Assembly (NCBI GenBank): GCA_951406725.2
Contig: OX597815.1
Location: 173,414,001-173,478,000, forward strand
DNA from: Octopus vulgaris
Taxonomy: Eukaryota
Direction: 5' to 3'
Length of the DNA stretch: 64,000 nt
Part shown: piece by piece, positions 22,110-58,137 of the stretch
Layout: every line of letters starts with the position of its first letter
Position numbering within the stretch: position 1 is the first letter of the stretch
Position numbers and translations under genes: made by a program
Notes under the pieces: model-generated
Told to the model about the DNA's origin: nothing
Database searches by the model: none
What the model saw: only the letters and a program-made list of their open reading frames with translations

Positions 22110-22733
<624 letters not shown>

Positions 22734-32539: not shown

Positions 32540-33860
32540 GTCAAATCTTCTCCAGTCCCACATGTTGGCAATCATCTCTCTACTCTGTAATCTCCTTGAC
32601 GAAGTTCCATATCATAAGATTGGTCTTCGATATTTCACAGGAAATTTTCCTTGTCTCTCACACTTCTAAAGGTTCCATCAATTTGGAGCACTAAGAAATT
32701 CTTTATACAACTGCCATCCTCCATATGCACACATCAGTGAAGTCTTCTCTCTTTCACACTATATTTGATTCCTCTTATAGTCAGTTTTCTCTCAGTTCAT
32801 TTGTACTTTGCTGTTTATGACCATTAACATTACACATACAATGGATCATACTTGCTTCATTTTACTGTACTCTTAGCCAATCTTTTGCATTCAAGTTCTG
32901 TGCCTTGCAACCAGGCATCATTGAATTTCATACACATGCACTAAACAATACAACCATCTATGATGAAGGAAACTTAAAGAGGTAATAACCCCTTGAACAT
33001 TATGCAACCCATTCTTATATTCTTATTCTGGATACTGTGCTCTCAAAACATCCACCTCCACTGTTAATTAGGTCACCTAGATAACAAAAGCTATCAACTA
33101 TTTTTAGGGAGCCTTCTTATAAATATTTAGGAAAATCTATTTCATAGTACTCTTAATGTTTACTTATACCTGCGTGTTTGCTGTATTTTCCTTCATAAAT
33201 CCCATTACATGTTTTGTATTCCTTAGTTTACAATAGGTGCATCATATGTAATTCCAACCAACTCCTCTTCTGCATATCAAACATTGGCTATTTCTGTCAT
33301 GGTACCATGACTGTCTTCTATCCAACTTTTAAAATTTTTACAAAGTTTACTTTGAGGTTCTCAATTCCAGCAATTTCTCTTTATGAAAACAAAATCAATT
33401 CACATAGACAGCTGTCTTGAATTCTTCAGTATAACTTGGAGAACTATAATAAACAGATGGTGGCTGAACAACTGAGTTATACTGGACAACAACTTTCAGA
33501 TAAATTCATTGCTAAATACTTTCTTGTCCTACCTGATTGACTATGCATAAGACTAGTGCACGATTTACCCTGCCAGATATTTCCAGCATGTCAACTATTA
33601 TATCCAACAGTCCAGTTGCTTCCCCCATTTCATAATCCTTAATTATTTTACTTATTATAATCTGTCAATTTGGAAGGCTGGTGCCTCTGTTGAGTATTTT
33701 GGGACTAGGTGCTCTCTCTCTTCCACAAATTGTCCTCATTCAACAATCTCTTAAAATAACATTTCCTTGCCTCCTACTTTTTAGCATTGTTAAAAGCAGG
33801 TATCATTTTCAATACCCTTCTCGCTAACAATGTCTCAATTTTCTCTGGTACATTGTCTTG
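32540..33860 (-). mobile_element. Decayed RTE-clade LINE
   Basis: Reverse-complement similarity to 5690-6700 (FCYLGD, RIRMG and ICRRGVG-like remnants). Boundaries approximate. Confidence 0.55.
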
Positions 33861-34399
33861 CAATTTGGGTAAACAAATAAGTAAATATTTTCCTATATTA
33901 TTATTTAAAATATTATTCTACATTAATACATTAAAATGATAATAATTTGCCAGTAGTGAAAGTAAATAATAAAGAAAATCAAAATTATGAATTCTTGAAT
34001 TAATATCTTAACTCTCTTGTGTGTGATAAATGGTTCAGGACAATAAAATTAATGGTAGAAGCAGACAATGCATTATCTAACAACATAGATAAATAAGCAT
34101 TTTCATATAACATTAATCTTACACACACCTATTTATATAAAAACCAAATAAAAACAAGAATCAGAGGAACTAGTGGTGGTCTATGTTAGCAAACATTATT
34201 CAGTGAAGTTCATGAATATGGATAAGTTTGTTAACCATGGGGAGATAAAAGTATCCTAATGGGTTGAGCGAAGCCCTTCCACAAAGAAGAAAATTAAAAT
34301 ATATATATATATAACACATAAGTCATTTTTCATTGTTATTCATTGTTAGCTTGATTATTATCATTTGGAACTGATAGTGAATATTTTAAGCAATATTAA

Positions 34400-37300
34400 C
34401 CAAACTACTCACCCTAACTAACCCATACACCAGATGTATACTATATTCACTTGAGAAAGATGTCACAAACTTTTAACAAAAAGGATACTGTAGGGTTACA
34501 AAAAAATGAAGGAAAATACACTATTGATACCAATAATGCTTTCAACTGCCTCATAAACTAAAATCCCTTTATATACAAAAGAATTTATACCAATGCACAC
34601 ATACTTTCAAGCCAACTATAACTTTTCCAGACATTAACTTCTGTACTACACATTTAGCTACCACAACAATGATCCTCCAACTATTCTTAGACCATCTATG
34701 AAGGAAACAATAACATTTAATGAAGGAAACAAATAATATTTAATGAAGGAAACAAATACATTTCTACAAACTTAAAAAGCTTATTGGAATGAGTTCCACC
34801 AAAAACAGAATTAAGGTTTCCCTATTTCCATATCACCTAAATTCACCAATATAGACAATGCAGTACATGCATTTAATAAAATAATTTTAAATGATCCCAA
34901 AAGTATATCCCAGAAGGTAATATAATATATGACCAATTAATATATCAGAAATAATAGACAACTGCACAAAAGTCAGGAAGCTCTGGGATACTGCACCAAC
35001 ACCACATGCAACAAAAAACAGAAAACTGGCAAACATTTGTATTGAATACAAACTAGAAAATGGGCATTAAAGCACTATATAGAATAATTATCAACAACAA
35101 CATTGAACAAAATAGCCATACTTCAGTACCAAGCAAATGTTCTTTGACATTTTTTGCTAAAATCAAACACTAAAAATCAGACAAGAACATAAAATGAAAA
35201 CTATACACTTCCAACCTAGATCATGATTTTTGTCATCTTCATTTCATCAAACAAAAACAAGCAATAGAATATTCTGGAAACTCAAAAGCCTCAGGGCCAG
35301 TATCAAAAACTTGAAGGGATCATTGCATTAACTAATATCTTCAATTACTTGTACCAACACTGCCCAATTCCCAGAATTTGGAGAATGAGAAAAATCATAA
35401 ACAATTCTAAAGCCCAACAAAAGCCCAAACAAAGTAACATTATACAGGCCCATTACACTCCTAAGCACCACCTCAAACATTCTGGAAAAAAATACTAATC
35501 CATGACATCAGTAACCTACACATTTAATTCAAATCAGAACATGGATTTAGCCCATTATACTTAATATACTCATGAACTTAACATACAAAAATTATTTTTT
35601 ATTGAAGAAAAGAAAACCTGTCACATGCACCGTGCTAATTTCCACTTTTTCCATTAGCAAAACTTATTCACTTAAAGAAAATCTACTTCACACAAAATCA
35701 TATTGTCAAGACTATGTAGTAGGCAAAAACACTTCTAGAATTTTCAGCTTCCTAAAAAGAGAACTAGACAGATTTGTCATTTCACTCTTTTCAAGCCATG
35801 CCCTCCAGCAACTTCTCAAAACATACATATGATCTCATATATATACACATATATGACTGACACCAAACACCATCCTGTTGCCAATCTCCAGACACATATG
35901 CACAACTCCTCAGACTCTACATTATTCATCCACAAACTTAGTTCCAAAATAATAGACTATAAGTAGCACTTACCAAATTCAGTCTCTCTGGCCAGCAGGG
36001 AAACAGTTTTTTGATCTAAATATCAAATACGATCAACTACCAAACCCAACAATATCAACAAACCCCCATACAGAAAGCTGATACTTACAAAGTTACATAC
36101 AACACATCTCCAATATTTACAGCACTCACAAAAGACATAGTAAAGAAAGAAAAATGAGACACAAATCTACCTAGAGCACCAACAATGCATTAGAATTACC
36201 ATGGAATATACTAGTTCTACCTGGGTCCTTAATCTCTCCACGAGGAACCTCAATAAACAAAATAGTAAACAGAACAGTACACTATGCATCATTACGGACT
36301 GAACACAAGCTATCAACATAACAATGATATTACAAATGAAAGACCACTTAAACTTGCATGGAGTACAGTTTTTATAATAACAAACCTCACTCTCAGTTAC
36401 TGCTTTTACATTAAAACTCACCATCAAACACACAAATCATCATTTAATGTTCACTTTTCTATATTTGCATGAATCAGATGGAATTTGTTGAGGCAGATTT
36501 TCTATGGCTGGATGCCCTTCCTGTCGCCAACTCTTATTTGTTTTCAAGATAACACTTTTCCATGGTCAAACATGTTTCTCATGGGAGACTTAAAATGAAC
36601 AACCTTGTTTATATGACAATGGTGTTTGTTTATAACTATCACATGATGTCAAGTCAAGGATGGGGAGAGAGAGAGAGAGAGTTCTTTCAGTTTCTGTCTA
36701 CCGAATCCATTCACAAAATGTTGGTTGGCCAGAGGCAATAGAAGATGCCCAAGGTACTGCATAGTGGGACCACATGAATAGAAAGCCAACTTCTTAATCA
36801 CACAACTATGCCTATCCCTACAACAGACAGACACTCACACAAAACTAAAGAATACTGCAACACCCTCTCTCACTCAATCAAAGTAAATGTAAAAGAAGAA
36901 GAAAAAATACACATGGACAATGAAATAGCTACAACTTCAAAAGCATCACTAGACCCAAATACCCAAATATTGCACAGAGATGTCCACCATAGACATGTAT
37001 AACTGAACTGACCTTGTTCACCTTTGTTGTAGTCACTACCAGTTATGTGAGTGTGCAGTAACAAACTGATCAGTGAAGAGAGTGAAGGATGTTCAGACTG
37101 TCACATAGTTCCCCTGTACAATTTATTATTGCATATCAGGGTGTACAATATGTTCTCAAATGCATGGAGACATAACAAAAAACACAAAAACAAACAGATC
37201 TACGAGTTACAATATCTAAATAACTACTTACACTCCATAGGATTGCTCAATTAGAGCTTACTTGGGGCTGCAAAACAGTACAACCCCCAACAGATACAGA

Positions 37301-38210
37301 CTTGCAGATGGCATCACAAATCAACTTTTTACTATTTGCCAGACACAACACAATTACAGCTAGTCCAATTACTTGGCAACATGACTCCAAAATAACAAAC
37401 AGAGGCACCTGCCACACCCAGCATCTCTCTTATTACCAACATCAGATAATGTCAATTACAGCCAACCACCACACTCAATAGCATAAACATACCACATACA
37501 CAAATGATAAAATATTAAAAATTACATGAAACACCTCTAACAACATTTACACTACATGTTGAAGGTAGCTTAAATAAAGGAAAATAAGATATGAGAAATT
37601 TGGGAGCACTCACATTTGACCAACACAATAAAACAACAGTTGTTTGCCAACAATATATTTGATCCATCATGGATTATACCAGTCCTCTTACACAACAAAT
37701 AAGAAAATTAAAATGAATGTAAAATAGTGCACTCTTCATTATCTTAAGTTGAACACAGATCACACCCACAAACTATCTCAATGAAACAAAAATACTGAAA
37801 ATGTAATGCCACCAGGACATACAATTTCTTATTGCTGCAAGCTCCTCACAGCCCCTACTAACGGATAAAAAAAATACATTACCTCAGTGACCACGAATCA
37901 ACACATAGATGACACACAAACTGCAGAAAACAGCTTAACTCATTGAAAACATTTACTGACATAAAATCCTAATCAAAAGAAGCCAGCAACAGCCTGGCTG
38001 AAATGCCAATCTCTCAGCTGGAGGCTATTTCAAAACACCCACATCATTACAGACAACCCACCATATCCAAAAATTACCAAAAGGGTAAAACAACACCAAA
38101 ACTTAAATATTATGCTTCTATCCAGGCCATCTCTGTAATTATATGTCCAAATACGGCTCAACACATCAACAATACCTTGAGCAATAGGATACAATTTGTT
38201 TTCTGCTAGG
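34400..38210 (+). mobile_element. Old, fragmented I/Jockey-group LINE remnant(s), interrupted by a SINE
   Basis: A/C-rich strand bias. Remnants KASGP (about 35285), ILKPNK (about 35403) and YRPITLLSTTSNILEK (about 35442). Boundaries approximate. Confidence 0.5.
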
Positions 38211-39079
38211 GACCTAAAGGAGCACAAAATACAATATACAAAAGTTACTACAATATCAATTTTGTGCTCAGTTTTCATCCACCTTTAGTGAATTTTATAA
38301 AACTAGCATCTTACTAATTCATCATAACCATTTTTCATACTGATAAACAAGACTTTATTTTTGTATAGTAACTTGAACAAAACACAGCACATTCTGGCCC
38401 CATATCATACTGAATGCTGGAATAAGTGAAGACCTGAAAGTTTCTTTTGTTTGTCCGGTTACTGCAGAAAGCTGACCAAAGTTGTTTAACACCAACTAGC
38501 AGTTAATCTTAAATCAGTATATTATTACTGCTATTACAAGGGATAATTTAAGCTAGGAAAGATTTTTGACTCAGATCAGTGAGAAACAAACTTAACACCA
38601 ATTTGACTAATTTTTTTTGAGTCATAAGCAGAGTGATTTATTCAGCTTCACACTTGACGGTATCTGAACACCAGATCTACATCATGCTGCTTCCGTAGTA
38701 ACATACAACACTAAATAGTCCAATTGAACTAATTGTAAACAGTGATATTACAGTTCACAATTGTAGTAGTTTTCTAGACCATTGTTTGATGTTTGACTAT
38801 GTTCTTGCACATTAGACCCTTATAATTTCATTTCCCCTTTTGCAGTGTACTGGTCTTAAGTTGTTAATTAATGAGCATCTTTACCTAATTATTATTTGTT
38901 TTTTTTTTTTCCAATATCTATGTAACATACTGTCAAGGCCTTAAATTCATGTGCATAATACCTTGTATATCAACTTCTGAAAAAAGACTAAAAGACAATA
39001 TATTACAAATATCATATAGTCTATGTGACATGACTGCATCTTTTCCTTCACAAATCTCAACAAAGACAAAACAATATAC

Positions 39080-39105: not shown

Positions 39106-42067
39106 ATCAATAATGATAAACTTTTTGTGGTTTGATGCGTCTTTCTTCGTTAAAATGTTTCACTAATACAATATTGTCACCAGTGAAGTGAAGTTCCCTT
39201 AACACATCTTTGAAGTTTTTGTCTTTACATGAAGTTGAGAATGCTTTATCAATCCACAATCAATGCACATGTAAAATAGCATATTTAATGGATTTAGAAA
39301 TCAGAGTATGATAAAAACTGTTCTTTGTGAGAGCTACAACACAACAGTATTTTACCTTATAATGAAATATAACGGATCCAATCTGGATCCAATATGGAGC
39401 TATGAATTGTGATTTGAATTGTTTAGGAGAATATCAGTGAATCCAAGTCACACAAGTACATACTAGAAACCTGTGAAGCTGATTTTTTTTTACATGAATA
39501 CTCCAAATAGAGGATTCCACTGTTTTTTGCATATATCTCGTAAATCACAAGGAACATGACTACTCTAAACTGATTGTGAAATTTTGGCTGGTTCTCAGCA
39601 TTTTTATACAAGTTGTTATAATCTGGGATGTAACATCCAGACACGTGTTGCTTACCAGATTCAACAAGGAGATTCTTTTTCAATGCTGGAAATAATTTTT
39701 GTTTACTCTGAGGGTAAAGATATAAACATCCTTCAGGTTTCAGTGCAATCATAAGCACTTTCTTGCACATCTAAACAAAGGAGTGGCTGTTTATAAATTG
39801 TGATCTTTATTTCATTAATAAATAAATACAATACTATATTTCATCATTTAAATTTGTTATAACTATGTTATAATCACCAATGTGTATAGAATATATAGTG
39901 ATAGGCTTCATGTTAGGTACAACTTCTCTGCAAATTGAACTGTTTCACATCCAGTTAAAGATGCTTCACTTCACTAATGAGTATAGTGAAGAGCACAATG
40001 TAGAGAGACAAAGTGAAGGGTGGATAAGATGTGTATGTGCAGAATATAAGTAGAGGCAAAAGTTAAGCAGCAAATGTCGTATTTGGGTATAAGACATGAA
40101 TGTTAAAGAAAGTTAGACAGGGGATTTATTAAAAGAAGTAGATGAAGTCATGTCTCAGAATTGTTCTTATAATAGTGAAGACAAAATGTTATATGATATA
40201 TAAAATCAGCTTCAAGTGAATGGGAGTAAACAGGACATTTTGGGTGAAATTTTGCAGACACTTCTATTGGTCTTACATAAAGGAGGGAGCTTTAATAATC
40301 CCAGGACTTTTATCCCATGAGTCATGATGAGTGTTCCAACAATTTATGAGAAAGTGAATTAGCCAATACAGTAATGAGTCAGATTATTTCAGTGTAAACA
40401 TCAGAAAATAGATTAGAGAAAATTATTTAATAATATCTACAGAAACTATGTTTAGCTCAAGAAACCTTGAAAAGAAAGAAGCCAAAGGCATATTTAGTGC
40501 ATTGATTTATTGCATCAAAAAAAATTTGGAATACAAGTTCAAAAGATAATTTTTAAATACTTTAAAGATTTTATTTACTTGGATAAATTATTTTCATTAA
40601 ATATATTCGCAAACTTCTTAAAACTTTATAAATAACATTGATTAAGATTAATCTGAGCAGGATAATTTGAATCTACACTTCAAGATCCATCTCTTTTTAG
40701 CATCTCTTTGATACTAGAGAACTTTGCCATAAACTATTTCCAGTTAATAGTTTAGAATGGACTCGACTGCAAATAAGAAGTATATTTTGGCTCTTTATGA
40801 GTAAGCTTAGAGTAGTTTACGCCACTATACATTAATAATTAAACAATTTATGCAATGTAAATAAGTAATATATTATGTTTGTTTGTGTATGCATGTGTTT
40901 AGGTAAGTTAGAATAATTAAGTCATTAGACATAATTATTCTAGCTTACAGATCAATATATGTCTGAATGAAATGAAAATAGATGTGTGGAAGAGGTTTAA
41001 CACTCCAATTGTGTACTAGTTTTTCAAGAATGCATTCTCACCTACCTATTACAGTTTACAGAAATATAAAGTAAAGAACTTGTAGTTAGCAAATCAATAA
41101 AAAAATTGCAAGTGCATCTACAATTGGTTGTTATTGATGAATACATTTAGCTGAATGAATACTCCTAATTACTGCAGCTGCTGCTGCTGTTACTGATGTT
41201 AAAGAGTAAAAGCAAGAGGGGATGAGTAAGATAATCAAGACAATGACAGGGAATGATGTTTAGGAAAATGTTAGCTCTGTTATTTTTTCATATGTGCACA
41301 TGAACATAGATTTAACGCATAGTGATAATTTTCAGTAGGCTTTTAAAAATTTTGATAGGCAAAAATTATCTAACTAAAGTGTAGATGTGAACTGGAGCCA
41401 AAAAAGCAAGCTAAAGTAGAGTTTGTTTAAATAAAGAAACCGGTAGTATACAATTGGCGATGACTAACTGGGAAATCGGATTCAACTAATAATTGTCTGT
41501 GTTGATATATATATATATATACAATGACAAAATCAATAGTATGCAATCAGCTTTACCAGCACATATAGTGCTGGAGAGAAATATCCAGAACACTAAAATA
41601 CATGCAGAATAAAAGCATTCAATGATATTAGCGCAGTAAATGCGCGCGCGTGTGGTGTATACACATTCAACTGTATTATTCTATCAATGTATACGAGCAT
41701 CTAAGTGAATGAATACATACATGAGTAGCTGAAAGGGGTAGTAGTTTACTTGCAAAAGTACACAAAAAAAAAAAGAATATAAATGAATAAGAATTAAAAC
41801 TGAATAATATGTAACATTTACGAGTGAAAAAATAATATACTGGTAAAATCTTTCGCATTAACATTATATGAAAATTGTTTCTGTTTAGACAAAATATTTG
41901 AAAATGATTATAAGAATAAAGCATGCTTAAATGACAGGATGGAGCATGGTATATACACTAGACCACCAGCTGAGGACAAGAAAATCATGAGATGTTGAAA
42001 GAAAACAAAAATCAACAGTAGTCGGCTACTGATTAGAGGTGGGGTCAGAAAAAATATGTATACTTAC

Positions 42068-42207
42068 AAGAGGAGTTGGGGATCATAAGGGATGGTTATG
42101 GTCCCACATGAAATAGTGCTGTTGGACACAGTTGTGTCATTATTGTTGTTGTTGTAATTATTGTTTGTAACAGTGGTAGGACATTTTGAATATGTGTTTT
42201 CACGCAT
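42068..42207 (-). CDS. Candidate alternative first exon (or 144-nt cassette exon 42068-42211) of a short dystrophin isoform
   Basis: gcaaaATG preceded by in-frame TAG and TAA. 46 open codons MRENTYSKCPTTVTNNNYNNNNNDTTVSNSTISCGTITIPYDPQLL, then TT|gtaagta, a perfect phase-2 donor compatible with the acceptor at 26496. Confidence 0.6.
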
Positions 42208-42245
42208 TTTGCTGGAGTGTTATTGACCACACCACTAAATTTAAG

Positions 42246-42313
42246 CAGGTGTTTTCTCTAAGTCACAAGAACAACTGAACTGTAACAGGTGCTCTGTCAA
42301 ATTAAGGGGTTTG

Positions 42314-42360
<47 letters not shown>

Positions 42361-42528
42361 ATGTGTGAGTGTGTGTAAATATATATATCCAACAGGTGTG
42401 GAGAGAGAGGGAGAGAGAGAGAGAGAAAGAGAGACAGTAAAATATTATATAGATTACTGAAACTGTTTAATAGTGTTATATACTGGTAAAGTAATTAATC
42501 CAACTATCAACATTGAAATCACCAGGTG
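42246..42528. promoter_or_regulatory. Cluster of four CAGGTG/CACCTG E-boxes upstream of the candidate first exon
   Basis: CAGGTG on + at 42246, 42286, 42393 and 42523, all in the same orientation, interleaved with (TA)n and (GA)n tracts. Confidence 0.4.
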
Positions 42529-44357
42529 ATAGTGAAAGCTGTGTGTATGTGTGTAAGCTCGCGAAACACTCATTGTTTTTAAATGCACACATCACTGATG
42601 TAGTACTTCTGGGAAAAAATTACGAAGGGGCTATTTCATAAAGAGCAGGGTAAAGTAGAAGATAAGATGCTGCTGTTTTAAAGACTTTTATGAAACAACA
42701 TACTAGTTGACAATATTTGTATCAAATCCAAAGTCACAGTTGAAAACAGTTGTTAATTCTTCATGACTGCCTCTCTTATGCATAGTAGTAATTTTTATGC
42801 TTAATGCACACGTGCTCTATCCCTGCCTTACACTAATCATCGTTCTCTGAATCATATACCCTATCTCCAAACCATTGACTCAAACAAGCTCACCCAAACC
42901 ACAACAAATTACTACTGAAATATAATTGTCTTGATTTATCACAATTTTTTTTTTATTATTAAAATGTAAACATTATTATTCTATAAAAATGTTTTTACTG
43001 CATGAAACTTGGTATTTATATTTTCAGTTTCCAAACTGTTTGTCTTGGCACAGTGGTGTGTTGTGAAATCAATATCTATGTGTCATGATTTGTTTTCTTT
43101 ATGAAGCAAATCTATAAGTTAATGTTATTTTATATCAAGGTTTTTTTTTTCTTTCTTAAAAAATAAAAATAAAATAAAATCCACCCAGTTCATTACTGGT
43201 CAGAGTCTAATAATTGTACTGCAGTGTTATATCTTATTTCAAATTTCCTTAAAATTTAAGTGAAATGAAATGTATGGCATTTGAAAAAGTTGTCTATTTT
43301 TGTCTGTTAATGACCACACACATACATATATGCATGCACGCACACACACATACACACGCACGTGCACACACACACACACACACACTTCAATGAATATGTA
43401 CTGTCTAGAAAGAATGATCAAATCCTACATCAAAACTTTTATAATCAGCAGAAATCTTTCATTGAGCTCAGTATAAAAATGGAATATTTCAAACATACAA
43501 ATGTTTTTTGTCATATCTAATTTTAAAATTTGCCTGATTATATGTGTGTGTGTGTATACACACACATACATATCCATACATACTATTGATGTTTGTATAA
43601 GTTTTTGAATTATGATTTCACTTATTATTTCCTTTTCCGAGTTATTCAAGTACTTGGGGCACTTAGACTGATAGGTTTTAAGGGCTTTTTGATGCAATGT
43701 TAATATTATTAAGTATTATTATTCACAGTTATAGCAACCACATTTAAGAAGTTCCTTGATATTGAATTAGAAGAGTTGGGTCAAGTTAATATAGTTGAAC
43801 ATGTTTGCATAACAATGATGAAATTGCAGAAAAGTCAGAGGACTAGTTCAAACACACTTTAAAGTATTATATTCTGTATATTCAGATATCTAATACCTTC
43901 AGAATTGACTTAGCCGTTCATATATCACAGCTCAATAAAATAAATAGCAATCATGTACTATAGTTGAATCAATGAGTTACAATTACTTAAAAATTTGTGG
44001 CCTTATACCATGAACCATCAAAATATTAAATGTTCATGTTGGTTCATTGTAGGTGAGTATTTGGTCTAGTCAAATATATGCAAAAAAGGATTGAGCAAAA
44101 TATTTTCATAAATGACAGAAAGGCTGGAAGAAGTTTTTGACAATATTGTTGCCAGTCCAATTTTTCTCAAATGCAATCTGAAGAAAGTGTTTCGCTGATA
44201 ACATGAGAAATGAAATTTTTAAAAGAGTCAGTATCTTAGTGCTGATACATATTTTGGTCCAAATTCATCACTTTAGAATTGCTGTGTATCTGATGTGAAT
44301 GGTTGGAAAGCATTTATTTTATACATGTTGCAGTAAGAAAGATATATACATCTATTC

Positions 44358-44720
44358 ATCATCATCGTTTAACGTCCGCTTTCCATGCTAGCATGGGTTG
44401 GATGAATGACTGAAGGCTGGCGAACCAAATGGTTGCACCAGGCTTCAATCTTGATCTGGAAGAGTTTCTACAGCTTGATGCCCTTCCTAACGCCAACCAC
44501 TCTGAGAGTGTAGTGGGTGCTTTAACGTGCCAGTCAGGCAGTACTGGCAATGACCTCGCTCGAATCTTGTACACGTGTCACTGGCACAGGTGCCAGTAAG
44601 GTGGTGCTGGTAACGATCACGCTCGAATGGTGTCTTTTATTTGCCACCGGCACGGAGGCCAGATAGCCGCTCTGGCAACGATTACGCTCGTATGGTGCTC
44701 CTAATACCCTACTAGCACGG
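44358..44720 (-). mobile_element. Relatively young RTE LINE 3' end with (GAT)n tail
   Basis: catcatcatcgtttaacgtccgctttccatgc..., CpGs retained, internal ~60-bp subrepeats (ggcaatgacctcgctcgaat / ggtaacgatcacgctcgaat / ggcaacgattacgctcgtat). Confidence 0.8.
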
Positions 44721-45539
44721 GGCTAACGTAATTAATTATATTTCCGTACTATAGGGGCATAAAATTAAGATTTGCATCCTAAATTTCAGTGATAACTTCA
44801 CAAGTGTCCAAAGCAATAACTTTGCATTTAGACAGTCATCTTGAAATTTTGTTGGTAATTCCCATGCTCTCTATTTAAGCAGATCTATGGTATGCAGAGA
44901 AAAATGGCTGGTTAAATGTAACATTCAGTTAGCATTTCTAATTTTTACAACCCACTGATAACTGAAAATGAAGACTACACATGTAGATATGGTTAACTTG
45001 TTTCTTATGTGCTCATCACTATAATGAATTTGAGATGTGTGCCACTTTATTTTGTTTTTGATATTAAATGTATTATGCATACTTTCTTACTATGGAATAG
45101 ATGTTGGTGGAAGGTAAGAAATTTGCTTGTTAGGACCTGAGCCATCACTAGAGATAAGAATAACTATAATTCCATCATGACCAATGGATTCTGTACTGAG
45201 AGATGAGCATTTTCTGCAGTTAGTGTGGCCACTGTCAATGAGTCAGTGTCTTGTCTATTTGCATCAACATTGCGTGTAGACATATATATGCATGGACAAT
45301 TTATCAGAGAACTGTTTTACTGTAAGGGAAGCTGAGGAACAAAATAAAAGTAAATATGTTGTCCAGAGAAGATTGTAAAACTCAACAGAGACAAGCAATC
45401 AATGACTTCAGGATAAGAGCTTCAGAGACAGAAGACAAACTTAGAAAAGTAAGGTTTGGAATCTGAATGATGCCTTCATTGTATATAACTTTCAAGAAGC
45501 ACAAAATATGCCTCTGGCAATAAGCGATGAGAGTGAGAA

Positions 45540-47560
45540 CTATGACAGCTAGGTTTTGCTATGTGACAATCTTCTGCAAAGATACCAGGGCTGTGGGTGA
45601 GCCAGGTTTCAACTAAAAGTTTAGAACAAGGTAGTCAAAGCCATAAAGGCTAAAAGGTAGGTCTAGAAAGAATGGAAGAAAGGCAGTAGAAGAAAAGGAA
45701 CAGCATTGGGTAGGTATGCGCTAGTATGCTTAGCAGGGAGAGAAAATGAACATAAAAAGTTTGCCAACATCCTGAAAATTGAAAATCAAAAGAACAGGAG
45801 TTCCAAATAGTGAGGCAGTGGGTCAGTATGAACTAGGAAAACTGTATGTAATATTGTAGGTGTAAACTTACCCTCACTGATGCTGACAAGAAAGAGGCCT
45901 GGGAATGCTTACTATGAGTTGTTGAATGTAGAGAATATAAAAGAAAAAAAGATACTATCCATATAGATCCAACAGAGAGACCACCTAGATATAGTAACTA
46001 CGATATAGTGAAAATGACCATTAAGGACACCAGTTCTGTTGGTTTGTGGTCACACATGGAAACAAGGACGAAATACAACTCACAGATCTATTTTACTGTC
46101 TCTGATTGTATTAATTTCCATTTTCAAGTTTATTTCTGTATGCCTGTACAGAAAAGACTTGCGAGTATGGTGGACTGTTTCTTTGCCCTTATTGTTAGTG
46201 GTCTGTACCCCAGTAGTGTTTGGAGCTAGTGAGGGCTATCAGTGTTTCAGTTGTTTCTGTGACAATGTGTTGCATAATGCTCATCTGGACCAAGTGAGAA
46301 GGATAGCAAGTTTAGATTGATGATGTAGTACCTAAGGGTGTTGTATACCTGTCTTGGTATAGTGCAGTGAAGTTTTATCCCCTGTAACTGACATTACAGT
46401 ATTATGTTCAGTTGCTACATTGGCAAAGATAAAAAAGAGAAAGTACAAAGATATTAAATTGATGGATCAAGTCATGAAAGCTAGAGAGAGAATGTATTGA
46501 ATGAGAAGCAGTTTGAGTTTATGCCATGGCATGTAACCATTTCTTAGTGAGTCAAGTACAGAAGTTTTTAGCTGAGAATAAACCACAATAACTAACATTA
46601 AATGACCTAGAGATACTTAGAATGCAAGATGTCCATTAAGTCGCAGTTCTCAATCCCATCTTGGTTATCATAATTCTCTAGGCTGTATAAAAAGAATTCA
46701 TAACTATCCATGGGGATCATTGTGACAATCTAGTTCTCATAGCTGAATCAGCTGAAGAATTAGAAAAGTTCTAAACATGAGAGCAGGGCCTGTAACTGAG
46801 AGGTGTGAGAAAAAAACAAAAAAAAACCCAAAAAAACAACAACAACCTACAAAAGATAAAAGTTTTAGCTTAGCTAGCAGGAAAAAAAAAAAAACAGAAC
46901 TCTACTACCTACTGGAAAGTGGTAATGCTTAATTGCAGAAATAGAGTAAGTAGGAATTCTATACTGTATATAATGCAAACTATGGGTACTAAGTTTTCAT
47001 TATATGCATTAGAATGAATTACAAGCAGATTGACAGAGTAGGACTTCATATGTAAAAGAAACACCAAAAATGAAATCTTTCAACCATTTACTAGAAGTAA
47101 TTCATAGCTTCTATTAACTAGGTAGCCTAATCAACAGTAGAGGAGTTTGTGGTAAATGCATAATAGTCAGAGTGAGAATGAGGTGGGAAAAGTTCAAGGA
47201 GTTATTACTTCGGGAGACAACACAAGCTTTCTCAGATTGTATACTTCTTGTGTACAAAGTGACAATACTGTATGGTAATGGAAAAATAGGCATTGAATAA
47301 AAAGGATGTGTAAAGAAAGGAGGTAAGCAAGCTCCACTGGAGGTGTACACTTAGTATACATGTGAACAATGGAGCATAGATTAGCTGAGAGAAAAACAGA
47401 TTATCAGAAGAATCAGCCATAATGCAAGCAAGAAGAGTGTGTTAGTACAGATATTTGAGGTCTATTAAGGATAACAGTTTGGTGAAAAATCCTTGAACAA
47501 TATAAGTGAAGGACTATGTGGCAGAGGAAGATCATAAATGATGAAAGACCATGGAAAGTG
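45540..47560 (+). mobile_element. Highly decayed RTE-clade LINE
   Basis: Remnants IKLMDQVMK, QFEFMP, VRVRMRWEKFKELL and CGRGR, collinear with the copy at 5690. Confidence 0.55.
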
Positions 47561-48548
47561 GCAAGACGCTTTACTAGAACAAATCAATCCAACCTGTGTC
47601 ACATGGGAAAACAGATGTAAAGTGATGACGATACAGAAATACTTCAAATGTAGTGATAGAGTGTAGATTAGACATAAAAAATCAAAATATATAATAAAGC
47701 TGTCATATGTTTTATACTTAGCTGTATTAATAACATTTATATTCTAATAAAGTTATGGTGAGAAAACAATTTTATTATACATCAGAGAATAATAAGTAAC
47801 TGTGATGCAGTTGATAGAAATCTGTGAAATAAAAGTGAGTCTTCTAATGAGTATTGGAGCTGGGTTTTTTTTTTTTTTTTTTTTGAAACATCTGCAATAA
47901 GGCAGAACAATCATTTTAAGTGGAGGGATGAAAAATCTAAGGATTTTAAAGATTGCTGCTTCATTTTATTTATGTCAAGATTTGACATAAAATATTAATA
48001 TAAAATTTCTGAGAAACAACATGAGGAAGGTGAATGCTGACTAATGAGCTTGTGACATTAAAAACAGCAAGGTAAACACATGCTGAGAAGCTGTTGAAGC
48101 ACCAACTGTGTTAACAGTAATAAAGTAGGGAAAAATGAACCACAAATGAGGAGAGGAGCACTGATTCAGAATACGCCTCTACTGTAAACAATTAAAATAT
48201 AGATTAGTGCAACAGTAACAGATGGCAGAGGATTGATGTATTTTTCCTTTATTTCTTTCATGAAATGCGGTGGTGTCATTTCATTTTGGCTCTGCTGTTT
48301 TATCTCCTTTCCAACAGCAAAATGAATATTAAATGTTTGAAAAGACTATCATTAACCTCCAACTGAGTAAAAGAATAAGTTATAATAATGACTAGATAGC
48401 CGAGTTTCACATAGATTTCAAATGATTAATATTAAATTTAATTACATTAAGTTTAGTGAACGTTTCTTCTTTCTGAGAAAATTTAAAGAGAAAACAATAA
48501 TTTTTGTATGATTAATACAAACTATAATATATTGTTTCAAATGTTCAA

Positions 48549-48553
<5 letters not shown>

Positions 48554-48613
<60 letters not shown>

Positions 48614-48624
48614 TGTGTGTGTGT
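48554..48624. repeat. (GA)n(GT)n compound microsatellite
   Basis: Directly visible. Confidence 0.95.
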
Positions 48625-49149
48625 TTAAATACAAGCATGCTCTGCATTATGGAAATTTGTGTTTTCGAAAATTGTATATTAGCATGATGTTCTGGAATGT
48701 GAAGCATGTTTTCCTCTCTTCAATGACTTCCATGAAGCATGAATGTCAATGGAAAAATAAATAAGTTTCACATTACACCAAGATTTTCAGGAACACAAGT
48801 CTTCCATAAAGTAAAGAATGCTTGTAGTTTATTGTATCTGCAGAACTATAATCCAAAATCAATTAATTTGTTTTAAATTTACCAAAAGTAACCTAAATAT
48901 GAATAGCACCGTTATGCCAGAGAACCTGAAATTAAAATATAGCTTCCTTCCCTATAACATAGAGTACCCTGCAGCAACAAGTAATATCTCTTATTACAAA
49001 TATTACTCTTCAAATTATAAGGCCCTTGCAGTGTGACAGGATAAAAATAAATTAGATATTAATTCCTAAAACTAGGTTAGTATAAAAAAGACAAAAAACA
49101 TGAAAATATTTTAAAAATTACATACCTGCATAAGTAGCAAAGTAACTGA

Positions 49150-49500
49150 AAGGTTGGGGGTAGGAGCTCAAGTTTAGTTCCATTGCACCTTGGGCAAGTG
49201 TTTTTGTAACCCTGGGATGACCAAATCCTTGTGAGTGAATTTGGTAGATGGAAACTGAAAGTAGCCAATTATGTGTGTGTGTGTCTTAGTGTTTGTCCAC
49301 CACCACTGCTTGACAATTAGTGTTGGCTGTGTGTTTGTTTACATTCCTGTAACTTGGCTGTTTGGCAAAAGAGACTGATGGAGTAAGTACCAGGCTTTAA
49401 AAAATTAAGTACTGAGGTTGATTTATTTGACTAAGACTCTTCATGGTGGTGCCACAGCTCGGTTTCAGTCCAATGACTGAAACAAGTAACAATAAAGATA
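49150..49500 (+). mobile_element. SINE family 2 copy just downstream of the exon-43-equivalent donor
   Basis: ccttgggcaagtg...gtgaatttggtagatggaaactgaaa...gactgaaacaagtaa. Confidence 0.7.
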
Positions 49501-49543
49501 AAAGGGCCCAATAACTTTGTTGCAAAGAATAAAAGGGACTTAC

Positions 49544-49716
49544 TTGTAGCGTTTGGAATAAGCTTCATTGACATTTTTCCACTGACACTGGAGCCGATCT
49601 GAAATGGCCATAATGTCCTTACTTTCATCATCACCACTTTCAGTTAACATATACAATTTTTGAGTATCAGCATCTTGAATGTTTTTCTGAATGCAATCAA
49701 GAGACTCTTTTACAAT
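49544..49716 (-). CDS. DMD: Dystrophin coding exon, equivalent to human DMD exon 43 (spectrin repeat ~R16), 173 nt
   Basis: cag|ATT acceptor and AA|gtaagt donor (phase 0 to 2). Encodes IVKESLDCIQKNIQDADTQKLYMLTESGDDESKDIMAISDRLQCQWKNVNEAYSKRY(K), similar to human exon 43 (NIKDSL...LDFQWEKVNKMYKDR), same length. Confidence 0.9.
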
Positions 49717-51152
49717 CTGGGGAGTGAAAAAAAATAATAATAAAAAGTTAGAATAATGATTAAATAGTATTATAGGCAGCATTCACTTCAATCAGTCATC
49801 TCTAATTATCTTTATGGTAAACAGGTTAAGGATTTTGAATTCAAAGACAATATTTGTACTTGTGTATTTTTGGATGTGTAACATGTACAATTACATACAA
49901 ATACAATAAAAAAAATATCATGCATTGTTTTTCTTAGAAAATTAACACTTGCAATATTTTTATATTTTACATTCATATAAATTATGCTATTTTTAATATA
50001 CATCAAATATTATCTTGAAAATAATTCCAGTAACTGTAAAAAGTTATTTGTGTAGCTTCCCAGTAACTGCAAAAAGTTAGGCATGACTAGTTGCGCTAAA
50101 ATGTAACTTTCTCTTCCAATGAACCAGAAAGGTAATCATATTAGCTACTTGTATTGCTATAAAGATAAGTACAATTTAATATCGTTAATTATTAATAAAA
50201 ACAAAATAGAAACAAAATGAGACTGTATTTAATCATGTGTTGATGTTCCTTATTAAGATAGGAAATATATCTGAAGGGATATTCAATGAAAGAATAGAAA
50301 GAAAGTTATCTGTAGATATATTTGTTTTAAATGCAGAGAAAATATCCATAAATTTCTGGAATTTATACTGAAAAATGAAAAGAGAAAAACTGAACATGCA
50401 ATATTTTGTTTACAAGAATAGATATATATATAATCTGGGAAGCTACAATTAAAGGGAAGTAACTCCTGCTATATTTACCATTAAGCGGAAATATATGGAT
50501 TGCTGAGAAATTTTCTAATTTCTTGACAGAAGTCAATAGTAAAATGTATGTTTTCATCCACAGAGAAATGCCCCCACTTTATCATAACTTTCAAGAGAAA
50601 TTTATATATTCTTCAACATAGATTCTTTGTTTTTACATCCATTTCCTCATGCTAGTATGATTATATGAATATATTACTGATGCACAGTTTTACAATCTGA
50701 TATTCTTCCTGTGATCAACCCATAGTTATTTTCCAAGTAGGAGATATCATATTTCACATGTCTTTGAAGGCACGAAGTGGGTGAATAATTTATTGACAGT
50801 GTGAATGACAACAACAATATCTCTTCTAGCTTGCAACTTTCTTAAAGTGTAAACATACACAGCGCACACACATTCTTTCAGTATCTGTTTATAAAATGAC
50901 TGATAAAGCTTTGATTAGCTTGGGGCTATAGAAGACACTAGCCCAAGGAGCTGCACAATGGGCTGAACTTGAAAGGCTTAGCTACAGCTTTGCCTTTGTC
51001 TCTAGTAAAGGTAAACATATACCTAGAATACTTTGGGGAAATAATTTTATAAAAGACACCATTAAAGTCGATTGTATGGCTGAGTTATGGATGTGATACT
51101 TTCATACACAGGTCTCAACAGAAAGAAGTGCAGCTGGACAAAATGAACTTAA

Positions 51153-51367
51153 CCCTTTTGTTACCATATTTCTGTTGAAATGCTCAGTGTTTCTTTCAAT
51201 TGATTTTAAATATAACAAAGAATTTAGTAAAATAACTTAGTTATCATTCAGCTAGTGTTAGGAACATAAATTGTGACTAAGGTTTGGTGGAAGATTTTAA
51301 TTCAAAACTTATGAAAACAAGACATTTGTACCCAGAGCCGGTTTCAGTTGGGTTGGTAATGAAAGGG
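51153..51367. mobile_element. piggyBac-type MITE (subfamily A) with TTAA target duplication
   Basis: TTAA|CCCTTTTGTTACCA ... TGGTAATGAAAGGG|TTAA. Confidence 0.85.
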
Positions 51368-52720
51368 TTAATAAGATTTTCAATATACTTCACAACAGAA
51401 GAAAAACAAAATACAATAAGCTGGCTTTCCTGAAGAAGTTAATAACATACAGAGTATAGATTCATGACAACTGTATGTTGTATGTCTACATTCACCAGAC
51501 ACTACTAGACCTTTCACTTCCATGATTCACATGAGGAAAGGGACTGTCTATGGGATGCAATAAACAGCAAGCAACTGTGATGAGAAGCCACCCAGGCATA
51601 TGTCAACAAAACATGATCAAGATGAGAAAGACCCATTAGAATAATGTAGTGATTACTCTGCAAGCATAGCACCAACTTCCAAGAACAGTGATATAAAGGT
51701 GGAGAATATTAGTTAAATAACAAAATAGAAAAAAGAAAAAAAAAGTGAAATAATCTGTCTACCATTCAGAGACATGTACGTCAGAAAAAAAATTCTGATC
51801 TGCTGTGCATACATCAGGACAGTAATGAAATGAGATGAAATGAAATAAACATCCAATATAGGTTTACCTTTCATGAACCATCTCTTCTGAACAAAGCTTC
51901 AATGAAAAGAAATCAATAATGCTATGCAGTTGTAAAAAGGAATATAAAAGTGAAAGTAACCCTCAAAGAATAAGGTTTAAGATTAAAGTGAAGTTGTAAT
52001 TTGTGAGGTGACATAGAAATTAGATATAGCTGATCACTGTGGAAGAAAAAGGGAGTTATGCTTGTGGAATAAAGTTACAATAAGTGATAAGGAACAATAC
52101 TGACAGATAAGATGGTTGAAAGAATCAATGCATTATGCTGGCTGTGATAACCTCTTCAGTAGGCCTAGCATAGAGATAAACACAATAAGGGAACCTTTAA
52201 TCAACAACACCAAATCTCTAAGCCTGATTTTCATTATCTAATTGTTTTACAAGACAACATAATACATAAGAAATGACTGAATTTCAAGTGTTCTAGTTTA
52301 TTAGATGGATACTTTGGTTTAAACGGATTAAGCAAGTGGCGCTACAAGTACAAGGATAATTAATATGAAGATATCTGCTGTGAATAACAGGAAGGTGACA
52401 TTCTACCTCAGTAGGTTGAACAAAGGGTTTGGCTTGAAATTTTGACAATGTTACTATATATGACATGCAACTGAAAGAGGTCAAAGATTACAATAGCTTA
52501 AATTTGACTATAACCATTAAGATGAGGACACTAGTCCAATATATAATACTGATAATTTCTCATCTCAGTAATACAGACAGATTGATGGCATTTTAATAAA
52601 ACAATGGGTCCAATTTATAATGATTATAATTAATACTTTGATTTATTATATTCTTATTTTGAGATAATTGTAGATGTAGATTCTTTAATATCATTTTAAC
52701 AGTATTGATCTTTTCTTTAA

Positions 52721-52941
52721 CCCTTTAGCATTTAAACCGGCCATATCCGGCCAAAAATATTCTACCTGTTTTATGTTCAAACTGGCCAGATCTGGTCTCT
52801 CAGACCAACCCTACAATATTGTTTTAAAAATTAACAACTACCTCATCAAAATCTCATAGCTACAAGATAATGCATGATTAATTCAAAACAAGGTAGGCGA
52901 AGAAGCATTAATTTTGGCAGAATAATGCGAACACTAAAGGG
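52721..52941. mobile_element. piggyBac-type MITE (subfamily B) with TTAA target duplication
   Basis: TTAA|CCCTTTAG ... CTAAAGGG|TTAA. Confidence 0.85.
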
Positions 52942-54436
52942 TTAAACAAATAAAGAATCTTGAATCATATTGAGTATACAATTCTAAGGGATTATAATGT
53001 TCCCATTTAACTCTACATTAACCCTGATCAAGGAAACATCTAGTTAAAAGCATTTCATCCACCAATAACCTGCTTTATCTTCAGAGTATATCTAGGATCA
53101 CACTATCTAACATGTCTTTACTTTTTTCAGATAAAATGTAATTTGACAGAAATATAGCTGTTATTTCTTGCTGGTTGAGTGACCACATAAAGGTTTCCAA
53201 GCTGGCTTATAGAAATAATAGCTGAAGAGTGGCTGAAAAGATAAGAAGTTCAACGACTGATCTCAAGGTAAAATCCAAAATTTAGTATAACTATTGTGAT
53301 ATGTCCTTAGGCAAAGCACACAACTTTTTCTTTTTACTCAGCAGACAAATCATTAACAAGAAGAGTAAAATTCAATCATAATTAAAAAAAACCCCCAGAA
53401 AATTAATATATTTACTCAAGTGTTCAGGTCCTGTCAATATACCAATTACCATAACTATTCAGCTGTCAATCTAATTGCTACAACTGCAAGCATATGCCCT
53501 AGTTCACAAAATTAAAAAGTGTTCTAGGTATATTAGCTAGGAAACACAAAAATGCAAAATGTAGTTGCTCACTAAATTTTTAGATCTGGCAGTTTAATAA
53601 TAATAATATAGTTTTAAACTGATACAAAGAGTTATGTGAATGAACAATTAACATCATTTGTGTTTGCAAAAATGTATGAAATGTAGAGATCTCATATTGG
53701 ATATTAAAATATAAACATTGAAAGAAATGTAGTTACTTCCCTCAGTTTAAACTTCACACTAACTTCAGAAGAAATTAATTACTGAGAATCTCATTGAAAA
53801 CAAATTTTGTAATTTTGTGATAAATACGAAATACAATAATAGAAAATCTTTAATTTATTTGAAAACACTTCTTAAATATTTTATGATATTCATCAAATAA
53901 AATTATTAGTATAAACAAAACATTTAGATAAAAGATATAAAATATAATAATGTCTGGTATACTATAAAGGTATTCTGAATGTTATGATTTTTTTTCTTTT
54001 GTTTTATAACTGATGTGAGTTAAACTTGTTATGTCATATTTTATGAGAAACATCTTCACAAATTAAATACTTTAAAACTCTTAATAGATTGTGACTATTT
54101 AAGTAGACTTAAAAATAAATATTTTCAATTATTTTCTTGATTCAAAAAAGAGACTGTTCACTCAAGACAAACGTATCTACATGTATGGATGAGTGATTGA
54201 GAGAGAGAGAGAGAGAGAAACAGAATGAACTATCAAATTATGTCCTCCAATATCTTTTTGACTACTATTTTGATGGCCTGTCTCTCAAAATGTGTCCTCC
54301 TACCCTTGATGCCCCTTTTATATCTTATCTACTTTACTAAACCTCCACAAGTATCACACAGCTCAATTGATAAGCCCTAGATCTGTATTCCTGGATCTCC
54401 TTTCTGGTCACTATTTCTCTTCCAAGTACTAATATA

Positions 54437-54655
54437 TTTCTTTACTTCCCACAAGGGACTAAACATAGAGGGGACAAACAAGGACAGACAAAGGGATTAA
54501 GTCGATTACATTGACCCCAGTGCGAAACGGGTACTTTATTTATCGACCCCGAAAGGATGAAAGGCAAAGTTGACCTCGGCAGAATTTGAACTCAGAACGT
54601 AACGACAGACGAAATACCGCTAAGCATTTCGCCCAGTGCGCTAACGTTTCTGCCA
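54437..54655 (-). mobile_element. SINE family 1 copy (young, CpG-retaining)
   Basis: Near full-length match to 9339-9565. Confidence 0.9.
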
Positions 54656-55568
54656 AAAGTTCAAACTGAACATACTCCTATTAACCTAATATCTATCAGT
54701 AGCCTGAAATAGCAATGGATCTCCTTTCTTTCCTAAGTCTTAAAAACATAAAGCAAAATTATAGTTACAGACAAAATTTCTTGTAATAAAATACAGCATC
54801 GAGTTAGAATTCAATAATAGCAGATTGGTCTATAAGTAAGAAAGTATGATTCAATAAAGATTAAATAGGTAGAAATATTTTTTCTAACAACCACATTTTT
54901 GTCAGAATCAATATTTAAAACACCTATCCTATAATGTTCTTTCAGTTATGAGACATTTTAAACAGATAAAAAGCAAAGGTAAGTAAAAATCAAATTCATT
55001 GTTGATCTCAGTCAATGAATTTGATTTTTGTTTTGTAACTTCAAAATCAATAATTTGTATATTGTTAACAATTCTAAGTGTGGTAAAAAGGAAAAAAACA
55101 AAGAAAAGAAAGAAAAAATAGATAAATAAGTTACAAATATTTCTGAACCAAAAAATGAAAACAATCAATGAGATATGAGATTTTGAGCACAAAATTCAAT
55201 CATACTTAAAACAAATAATTTCAACATATTCACTCAAATGATAAGGCCCTATAACCGAAACAGTTTAAATGAAGCAAAAGCTGTTTATCAATGACTTCTT
55301 TTACAGCATGCACTTAATGCTTGAAGATAATTAATGGCAACAATTTCTTGGTTCTAGATCTAATATTTTCTCTCTAAATTAAAGGGTTATTATTATATAG
55401 CTATATAAATTAATATAGACTGAATATATAAAAAAAAAAATACTGAACAATATAGCATTTGCACATGTTTTCTAGTCATACTTTATCCATCTAAACAAAT
55501 ATAACTAAAAATAGTCACCAAAATAGATGTAATTTACAGAAGAGGCTCATTTAGATTTTATCATTTAA

Positions 55569-55777
55569 CCCTTCTGTTACTAATCTGGCAGAAACTGGCT
55601 CTGAGTACAAATGTACTCATAAGTTTTGAATTAAAATCTTCCACCAAACATTAGTCACAATTTATGTTCCTAACACTAGCTGAATGATAACTAAGTTATT
55701 TTACTAAATTCTTAGTTATATTTAAAGTAATCGAAAGAAACAGAGAGCATCTCAAAATAAATACAGTAACAAAAAGG
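55569..55777. mobile_element. piggyBac-type MITE (subfamily A), inverted relative to 51153
   Basis: TTAA|CCCTTCTGTTAC...GTAACAAAAAGG|TTAA. The interior is the reverse complement of the 51153 copy. Confidence 0.8.
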
Positions 55778-56825
55778 TTAAAGGTCTAAGGTCTACGTTT
55801 TAGAATTGTGTGCATAATTCCTTTTTAAATCTTAACAGTAATAATAAATTCTAGAATCCTTTTGAAGCATTCAAAAATGATCAGCTCCCAATCCCACCAT
55901 TACAAAAACAAGGCAGCTGTTAATTCATTATTCAATAATTCTTATAACAAAAAAGTAGTACAAAGAACCAGTTATCAAATCAGAGATGAAATCAAAAGTA
56001 TGATTATGGCTTTCAGAAAATTGGGAAAATCAATTAGAAATAGAGAAATGCCAAAGTAACACCAAGATTTCTTAAATACTCAGGAGAAAAGGAACAATTC
56101 ATTATGAAAGAAGAAAACAAACATGAAAAAGATAGCCTAAAGAATTTTGATGTATCTGATAAAATAAAAAAAAAGAGATGTCAGTATTTGTTTAGAGCCA
56201 ATTAATTGATTAACTATTACAATACAACATAAACTATTTGACATCAAAAGATAAATAGAAAAGACTGCACTGAAATAAGACAATTGACTGGAACAAGGCT
56301 ACATGGTCAGATGAACCTAAATTTGAATTGTCTTCTGAGGAGTGCAAAAATGTTCTTAATTTAAATTTATAGAGTTGTTTTTTTATTTCAATGATTTTAA
56401 TGCATACTATTAAATTATTGAATAAACTTTAAATTCTTTAAGCACATTACATTATGCAATAATTTGCTGAAATTGTCAGTAAATAAGACTAATAAAGTTT
56501 AGTGAGATAATCCTCTATCTTATATATCAAAGGAAGTAAAAAGTTACTTCAACAAAATCATCATCAAATTATTGTGAACCAAATCTCATTCAGAATATTT
56601 AAAGCCACTTTAAATGGCTAATAATAAAAAGAAACCACAAAATTAACATCAACCAATGAACAGTTTGAATAAAATATGAAATGACTGGTTTCTAGAAACC
56701 AGTAAATTTTTCCCTCAAAATATCCAATACATAAATGCTTGCATTTCATTTTCTTAAATTTAAGAGGTTCCATCACTAATTAATTATGACTAGTTTTATT
56801 TTTCACTCACTCGGAAATACTTTCT

Positions 56826-58137
56826 TTCTGTACATTTGTGCTCATATGTATGAGATGAATGAGCCAATTGTATTCAGGAGCTCATTTTCTGAAGAGTAGT
56901 TTTATAAATATATTCTTATTAATATTTATACAAAAGACATTGTTGTTATTTGCAATTTACATTTTATAAATTTATATGTAAACATGTACACACACATCTA
57001 TGTGCATGGCTGATGCAAAAGGACACAAAAAGCAATTAAAGAAATATCCTAAATAAATCCATACTTAATTATCTTTAATTAATGACCCCATCGCCAAAAA
57101 AGAGGAATTATTAGAAAGGATGTTTTGCAATTAAGAGGTAATCAGAAAGTAGAAAATATGACACCAGAAAACTAGAGGTCTTTAAATCAACACAAAAATA
57201 ATTTGATATTAAACCAAAATTAAAACTAATGACTCACAAGTCACCATTATGAATGGAGAGGTTATTGCAAACACACCAAAACATTGTGGTAATTACAAAA
57301 CCAAACTAGGTGTGTATATATGTGCATAACATGAGATACTAATGTACCTACAATCAGTCTCAACCATACATTACATTTATGACAGAAACAAACAGGTTCT
57401 CTGGGTAATCAAAGCATGTAAATTTAAGCAAAACTATGTAGAACCACAATGTAAATTAAGATCTACCGACGAATAACTGAAATGTAGGTCACAAATTGAA
57501 AGCAAAAGGAGATCATCTAAATTCTTTTCTACTCAAGGCCCAAAATTTTTGGGGAGGGGGCAGTCAATTAGATCGACCCCAGTATGCAACTGGTACTTAA
57601 TTTATTGACCCTGAAAGGATGAAAGGCAAAGTAGACCTCAGTGGAATTTGAACTCAGAATGTAAAGACAGACGAAATATCACTAAGCCTTTTGCCAGGCG
57701 TGCTAACGTTTCTGCCTGCTCTCCATCTTGGAGATTATCTAAATTGGCTCCACAATGTAAATGGGAATTGGAAACCTCAGTATATTTATTTAACCTCAAA
57801 AAGACAATGAGCAAAGTGCTGAGACTGGACAAAGGCAACATGGAATCATCATGCACATGTATTTCAATGTCAGTAAAATGCAACAAACATTGCTCTCAAG
57901 TTATTCAGTGTGAAGAACCCAAGTCTTGTATTTTTTTATGTGGTTTAGCCTCAGAGGAAGAAATATAGAATCATAACATTTGCCAAACCTCTCAAGAACC
58001 TATAGACAATACAGAAGGAAGCAAGGAAGAACCCATAGACAAGGTTCTGTACATTTGTGCTCATATGTATGAGATGAATGAGCCAATTGTATTCAGGAGC
58101 TCATTTTCTGTTTTAGTCTGAAGAGTAGTTTCATAAA
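56826..58137. repeat. ~83-bp direct repeat pair (56826-56908 and 58045-58137)
   Basis: ttctgtacatttgtgctcatatgtatgagatgaatgagccaattgtattcaggagctcattttctg is identical in both. The second copy has an extra 10 nt (ttttagtctg). Confidence 0.9.
57522..57718 (-). mobile_element. SINE family 1 variant with a different 3' tail
   Basis: Shares the head and core (aaaggatgaaaggcaaagt...gaatttgaactcagaa) but the tail reads ggcccaaaatttttggggaggggg. Confidence 0.8.

Follow-up and report, generated by a model that had tools for sequence, protein, structure and literature searches.

The 23-kb intron in the rod region of the dystrophin gene of Octopus vulgaris holds a conserved and spliced alternative exon, with which the coding sequence of an internally started dystrophin very likely begins. 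The exon lies on the minus strand of the stretch analysed as a whole (the window: 64,000 nt of contig OX597815.1, assembly GCA_951406725.2), and its coding part, at 42068-42207, is an ATG-started frame of 46 codons plus 2 nt ending in phase 2. It was recognised in the sequence, in RNA-like contigs and in the orthologous proteins P0022 and P0027; the case for it is made by the contigs and the orthologues, not by motifs.

Ten dystrophin rod exons, 40-97% identical to the protein P0001, are found on the minus strand of the window. P0001 clusters with the dystrophin of the cuttlefish Acanthosepion pharaonis and matches residues 1915-3693 of the dystrophin chain 9c3c_D. The host intron of the leader exon extends over 23,047 nt, from 49543 to 26497. 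Above it lies the canonical upstream exon (49544-49716, minus strand, the exon-43 equivalent), absent from the short isoform; its identity comes from tblastn, and a PDB search with it gave no dystrophin match. Below it lies the acceptor rod exon (26361-26496), which matches residues 2098-2127 of 9c3c_D and which we take to correspond to human exon 44 and to open repeat 17. Eight further rod exons, common to both forms, follow between 25267 and 8574, with approximate limits from tblastn at 25267-25091, 19389-19243, 16288-16136, 15833-15654, 12428-12213, 11555-11367, 9988-9866 and 8780-8574. Positions 49717-64000 of the window yielded no dystrophin exon; the next upstream one lies near 173508000, so that the intron above 49717 measures about 44 kb. 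Within the 23-kb intron the GC skew is reversed at 33000-39000, possibly by an element inserted on the other strand, and two downstream introns contain AT microsatellites (22116-22722, about 300 copies; 5111-5571, about 240 copies).

An initial annotation of the window had described an Asn/Thr-rich frame of 46 codons that opens after two in-frame stops and ends at a gtaagt donor whose phase fits exon 26496. Frame and peptide are present as written, the ATG lying at 42207 within CAAAATG and, 140 nt on, the gtaagt 5' splice site (42062-42067). The donor has the phase of the canonical upstream exon 49716-49544 (phase 2), and the leftover TT of the frame joins the single leading A of exon 26496; the in-frame stops before the ATG number three rather than two, at 5, 10 and 12 codons. 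The sense strand of the intron has 44 phase-2 GT[AG]AG donors, of which one terminates an ATG-open frame of at least 20 codons, namely this exon, while the 35 such donors on the antisense strand terminate two. In 100 Markov simulations of the intron, 0.10 ATG-open frames of at least 40 codons per intron ended at a phase-2 GTAAGT, and 0.72 did so when the donor was relaxed to GT[AG]AG; taken by itself the frame is therefore suggestive, to a modest degree. A search of the 2.8-Gb genome found the exon to be single-copy: it returned the locus and a 50-nt match to an AAC repeat, which removes a second copy or retrocopy from consideration.

Of 24 sequencing runs listed, 20 (from nine studies) contain at least half of the words from 42068-42315; 14 of these were guessed to be RNA, and none of the 20 is recorded as such. 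Runs X21-X24 contain none of these words. Contigs from four of the 24 runs (X1, X2, X10 and X11, representing four studies and two organisms, A and B) were mapped onto 41700-42900. In every one of the four a contig breaks off at 42068, and its loose end matches the first 30 nt of exon 26496 (26467-26496; identical in X1, one letter different in X2, X10 and X11), and the interval behind the donor, 41700-42067, is without cover. Because the contigs end at the donor, jump to exon 26496 and leave the intron uncovered, as RNA would, we regard the splice 42068>26496 as real; that these runs are RNA is itself a guess, resting on the same splice and the empty intron. The junction foreseen in the initial annotation is thus present in four of four runs, its donor at 42067 is in use, and the end of the frame is conserved in cuttlefish. 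In X1, X2 and X11 the contigs, 300-301 nt long, stop 30-32 nt inside the shared exon, as where a second upstream path merges, and a 3779-nt contig of X10 begins within the leader exon and continues unbroken downstream, as expected if the short form predominates. Judging by this contig shape, with 30 loose letters visible, the short and the canonical forms are probably both present. Organism B differs from A at 42198, where leader codon 4 changes from Asn to Asp.

The same contigs bear on the alternative put forward in the initial annotation, by which a weak ctccag acceptor (42212-42213) would turn the exon into a symmetric 144-nt cassette (42211-42068) that places a linker after repeat 16 and before repeat 17 in the full-length protein. 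Such an exon would be open and in phase from 42211, and minor use could escape contigs, which lose rare variants; the mapping covered 41700-42900 and not the 49544 end. In all four runs, however, the contigs cross 42211 unspliced and continue to 42306, and neither 42211 nor any of the other AGs as far as 42293 (eight AGs in all) shows a loose end, which leaves the cassette unsupported. Moreover, the -3 base of the acceptor (42214) is A in organism B, so that ctccag reads ctcaag. The orthologues have their initial Met in this exon, and the insert is missing from all five longer cluster members that cross the junction. We consider the cassette very improbable. An acceptor at 42293, after a long AG-free stretch, was likewise discarded, as the contigs cross this position unspliced.

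Beyond 42306 the contigs skip a microsatellite block (42316-42434) made of TA (42316-42356) and GA (42401-42434) repeats, and no contig in the four runs spans the gap 42307-42442. Among the contig pieces listed, with four loose ends inside repeats set aside, cover resumes at 42557-42816 (X1), 42593-42752 (X2), 42525-42677 (X10) and 42443-42757 (X11), at a depth resembling that of the exon (8.21 versus 8.29 in X11). As the minus strand lacks any AG between 42296 and 42456, the gap hides no acceptor. The simplest reading is that the pieces 42068-42306 and 42443-42816 probably belong to a single exon about 700 nt long, of which 550-600 nt within 42208-42816 would be 5' UTR. This probable UTR contains six upstream ATGs, all of whose short frames close before 42207; judged from the sequence, they could damp translation from the ATG at 42207.

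No splice was seen upstream of the exon and the pieces end at 42677-42816; contigs, which carry no strand, cannot reveal a start. We infer a promoter inside the intron and a transcription start near 42750-42820. A pattern scan picked out CATAAAA at 42799 and, about 31 nt away, the initiator-like word GCAGTC at 42770; they have a TATA/initiator-like spacing and form a candidate core promoter (42765-42799, minus strand). The X2 and X11 contigs end at 42752 and 42757; because the X1 contig extends to 42816, we treat this pair as a weak hint. The initial annotation had noted four CACCTG E-boxes within 330 bp upstream. Four same-strand copies do occur (42523-42528, 42393-42398, 42286-42291 and 42246-42251, with a putative function), amounting to four of the 14 copies on that strand in 64 kb (P of about 0.0004 for this hexamer; three other tiles of 193 also have a rare hexamer four times). 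Since transcribed pieces extend to 42677-42816, they probably lie inside the long 5' UTR, three under RNA-like contigs and one in the skipped repeat. We did not accept them as proof of a promoter, as transcribed contigs overlie them and organism B, at a difference of about 1-2%, is too similar for conservation to be informative. Transcription might instead begin at a non-coding exon higher in the intron, or at several starts, some of them near the E-boxes; the leader exon would then be a long internal exon that supplies the same ATG and protein. The scatter of the 5' ends of the upstream pieces (42677-42816), the unspanned repeat gap and an initiator-like TCAGTT at 42278 are compatible with such an arrangement, and the mapping reached 42900, with 42900-49543 lying outside it. 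Against it, the upstream pieces show no loose end or joint in the four runs, and those set aside in the repeat block mark no acceptor, given the AG-free minus strand there. A different promoter of this kind appears unlikely to us.

The P0001 cluster comprises 14 proteins, seven of which span the junction with exon 26496. Five of the seven carry the canonical exon there (P0029, P0031, P0001, P0028 and P0026), and two carry a Met-started leader: P0022 (CAE1330730.1, Acanthosepion pharaonis, 699 aa), with 43 residues before the junction, and P0027, with 47. P0027, which derives from assembled contigs of up to 6244 nt, has 1646 aa (190 kDa) and runs to the normal C-terminus. Its residues 48-1376 map in order along the window's own genome, down to C2:173214751; within the 200 kb covered by this mapping, beyond which residues 1377-1646 fall, 1291 of the 1646 residues were placed at 40% identity or more, and residues 276-312 at 38%. 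The leader ends in SSGTITIPYDPQLML in P0022 and P0027 versus SCGTITIPYDPQLLL in the octopus, with 12 of 14 positions identical, whereas the canonical upstream exon in the same comparison retains 22 of 57 (39%), and 8 of its last 14. The conserved motif at the end of the exon, GTITIPYDPQLL(L), encoded at 42068-42105, has 11 consecutive invariant columns in the three sequences. The first two-thirds of the leader are poorly conserved, with the Asn/Thr-rich composition kept.

These comparisons also weigh on the possibility that the exon belongs to a spliced side transcript, untranslated or non-functional, which a cryptic promoter in a long intron would produce and whose upstream frames would block the ATG. 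The low contig depth on the leader exon (3 to 8), the six upstream ATGs and the low complexity of the poorly conserved part of the peptide would all suit such a transcript. A block of 11 residues that is invariant with cuttlefish, next to a canonical exon of 39% identity, argues the other way, as does the retention of frame, Met distance and junction between the octopus exon and the proteins of the cuttlefish cluster. We therefore hold a non-functional side transcript to be highly unlikely and retain the reading as a first coding exon.

A search with the downstream exon among 1.84 billion representatives gave 51 matches, of which 33 extend 13 residues or more beyond the junction on the N-terminal side. 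A single one of these, P0047 (GFR63471.1, a 270-aa dystrophin of Elysia marginata with a Met-started leader of 21 residues), scored 23 against the motif in the exact register; the runner-up among the 33 scored -5, and one of 97,401 background 13-mers reached 23. The remaining 32 are mostly intron read-throughs or canonical forms. The Elysia motif shares five of 13 residues with that of the cuttlefish and comes from a single automated gene model, so that a gastropod-deep age of the exon is to be taken as probable. The end of the leader exon is thus conserved in cuttlefish and, as far as these alignments go, probably in a gastropod. The initial annotation had proposed a mollusc or cephalopod isoform with a unique N-terminus starting at about R17; this is supported, but the frame is not a young, lineage-restricted one. 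The bivalve protein P0002 represents the canonical form only. In the chiton Liolophura sinensis, the RefSeq models P0003 and P0034 (1521 and 1562 aa) have their Met one exon below the junction, which could reflect a split model or, alternatively, a further internal start.

Searches with the leader itself were less informative. A direct protein search with the 46-residue peptide produced 27 candidates, none at E<=1, a weak negative that the cluster members later overturned. The leader matches no Pfam family, its ESM Atlas matches (0.87-0.92) are unnamed proteins or spectrin look-alikes and uninformative, and a metagenome scan with the leader alignment yielded 583 pattern matches, none of them confirmed. 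An exact look-up of ten single-exon frames from the gene matched none. The leader exon is already inside the automated gene models CAE1330730.1 and GFR63471.1, both truncated, which are named only 'unnamed protein' and 'dystrophin', with no isoform described, and the octopus genome annotation may already list it.

In P0027, Pfam recognises eight spectrin stretches, EF-hand_2, EF-hand_3 and ZZ; a WW match falls slightly short of the cut-off, and a CH domain is absent. By the proposed mechanism, the ribosome would pass several short upstream frames and initiate at the CAAAATG at 42207; the leader exon would be spliced onto exon 26496, leaving out the canonical exon 49544-49716, and the product would have about 1640 residues (about 190 kDa) and lack the actin-binding end. 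Its floppy Asn/Thr-rich leader of about 34 residues would be followed by the conserved 13-residue motif, which would replace the last helix of repeat 16, normally continuous with repeat 17, and then by eight spectrin repeats, WW, two EF-hand regions, ZZ and the C-terminus. The AlphaFold model of P0022 (11-row alignment, mean pLDDT 72.6, pTM 0.34) has residues 1-34 disordered and a 40-residue helix that begins at P39, directly after D38. A D-P pair is a textbook helix cap, and with pLDDT of about 54 at residues 31-40 the model predicts, with low confidence, that the D-P of the motif caps the first helix of repeat 17. Because a cap leaves the invariance of GTITIPY unexplained, a binding role for the motif is also likely. 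On the model of Dp140 and Dp186, the protein would serve as a membrane scaffold that binds dystroglycan and its partners without the N-terminal actin link, probably in a restricted set of cells. Just past the junction lies an FH.D helix, which is kept here and not in Elysia. PMC6186803 describes a His-centred syntrophin site in repeat 17; we did not equate the His-bearing FH.D helix with it, as the site is assigned to exon 45 and that part of the source gives no sequence for matching.

Short dystrophin isoforms do much non-muscle work, with Dp186 acting at central synapses of the fly and Dp140 in the vertebrate CNS. The octopus exon has several features of this class: it is a unique intronic exon of a dystrophin gene, is spliced onto a shared exon and has a coding part conserved at its end; the orthologue P0027 has no actin-binding domain and keeps WW-EF-ZZ and the C-terminus. 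Dp260, Dp140, Dp116 and Dp71 keep 15, 5, 2 and 0 repeats, and the fly isoforms Dp186, Dp205 and Dp117 keep 4, 2 and 0 (PMC2840664); a start with eight repeats is unlike any of these seven (PMC2840664). The first exon of Dp140 is non-coding, lies in intron 44 and joins exon 45, and the start codon is in exon 51 (PMC1790709). The octopus form resembles it in the mid-rod promoter that we place in a large intron, in the missing actin-binding domain and in the cysteine-rich and C-terminal regions kept, but its exon lies one intron earlier in the numbering assumed here, is coding and precedes eight repeats (PMC1790709). The parallel with Dp140 drawn in the initial annotation accordingly holds for the internal-start kind of isoform and is otherwise loose, the Dp140 first exon being one intron down and non-coding (PMC1790709). 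A Dp140 orthologue was rejected, as the octopus exon splices to the exon matching 9c3c_D 2098-2127 (presumably exon 44) and has an in-frame ATG.

With the fly isoforms Dp186, Dp205 and Dp117 the octopus form shares an invertebrate host, a unique coding N-terminus conserved among relatives and the lack of an actin-binding domain; unlike them, it has eight repeats (PMC2840664), and no sequence link to them came to light. Dp116, G-utrophin and the sea-urchin SuDp98 arise from an intron-55 promoter and keep two repeats; they indicate that a promoter of this sort can be ancient (PMC1790709). A short conserved coding first exon is a likeness to Dp116 and G-utrophin, while the intron differs from that of all three, which keep two repeats (PMC1790709). 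Membership in the intron-55 group (Dp116, G-utrophin, SuDp98 and Dp205) was rejected, as eight spectrin stretches follow the leader. No mollusc short dystrophin isoform was found described in the literature searched, with most subscription journals and supplements outside its scope, and the available parts of PMC4582122, PMC10293626 and PMC6251231 contain nothing on mollusc dystrophin isoforms. The exon would belong to an established type of isoform, at a site that the literature checked does not report. It would make molluscs the third lineage with a mid-rod promoter, one intron from the tetrapod Dp140 site, and its placement fits the idea of large dystrophin introns as promoter sites. With the kind of system well known, the surprise is moderate; cephalopod biologists now have a defined junction and peptide for work on brain and arm muscle.

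A second candidate internal first exon lies 67 kb upstream on the same strand, about 45.5 kb past the end of the window (G000:C2:173523553-173523714). A hydrophobic stretch of 54 residues, with 19-residue hydropathy as high as 2.84, forms the N-terminus of P0001 and P0028 (1837 aa), and 49 of the 54 residues of the candidate exon equal it; full-length P0029 has ordinary rod sequence at the same place. The exon consists of 54 codons opened by an ATG; a stop precedes the ATG by about five codons, and the phase-0 donor, gtaaat, suits the exon that begins at C2:173508412. ESM Atlas matches to the hydrophobic N-terminus reached at most 0.83 and were uninformative, and a membrane-anchored form was not met in the literature checked. 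From its translation, the exon is predicted to give a membrane-anchored dystrophin of about 211 kDa, which, if confirmed, would be a stronger result than the leader exon. Molluscs may then possess mid-rod starts of their own, namely a leader exon that predates the gastropod-cephalopod split and carries a selected cap or binding motif, together with a 54-codon membrane-anchor exon that replaces the actin-binding domain; we put forward this combined scenario tentatively, and rate it at slightly less than an even chance. Large dystrophin introns frequently contain further promoters. An intron of about 89 kb is located at C2:173303295-173391895, between the exons for residues 604-670 and 671-727 of P0027.
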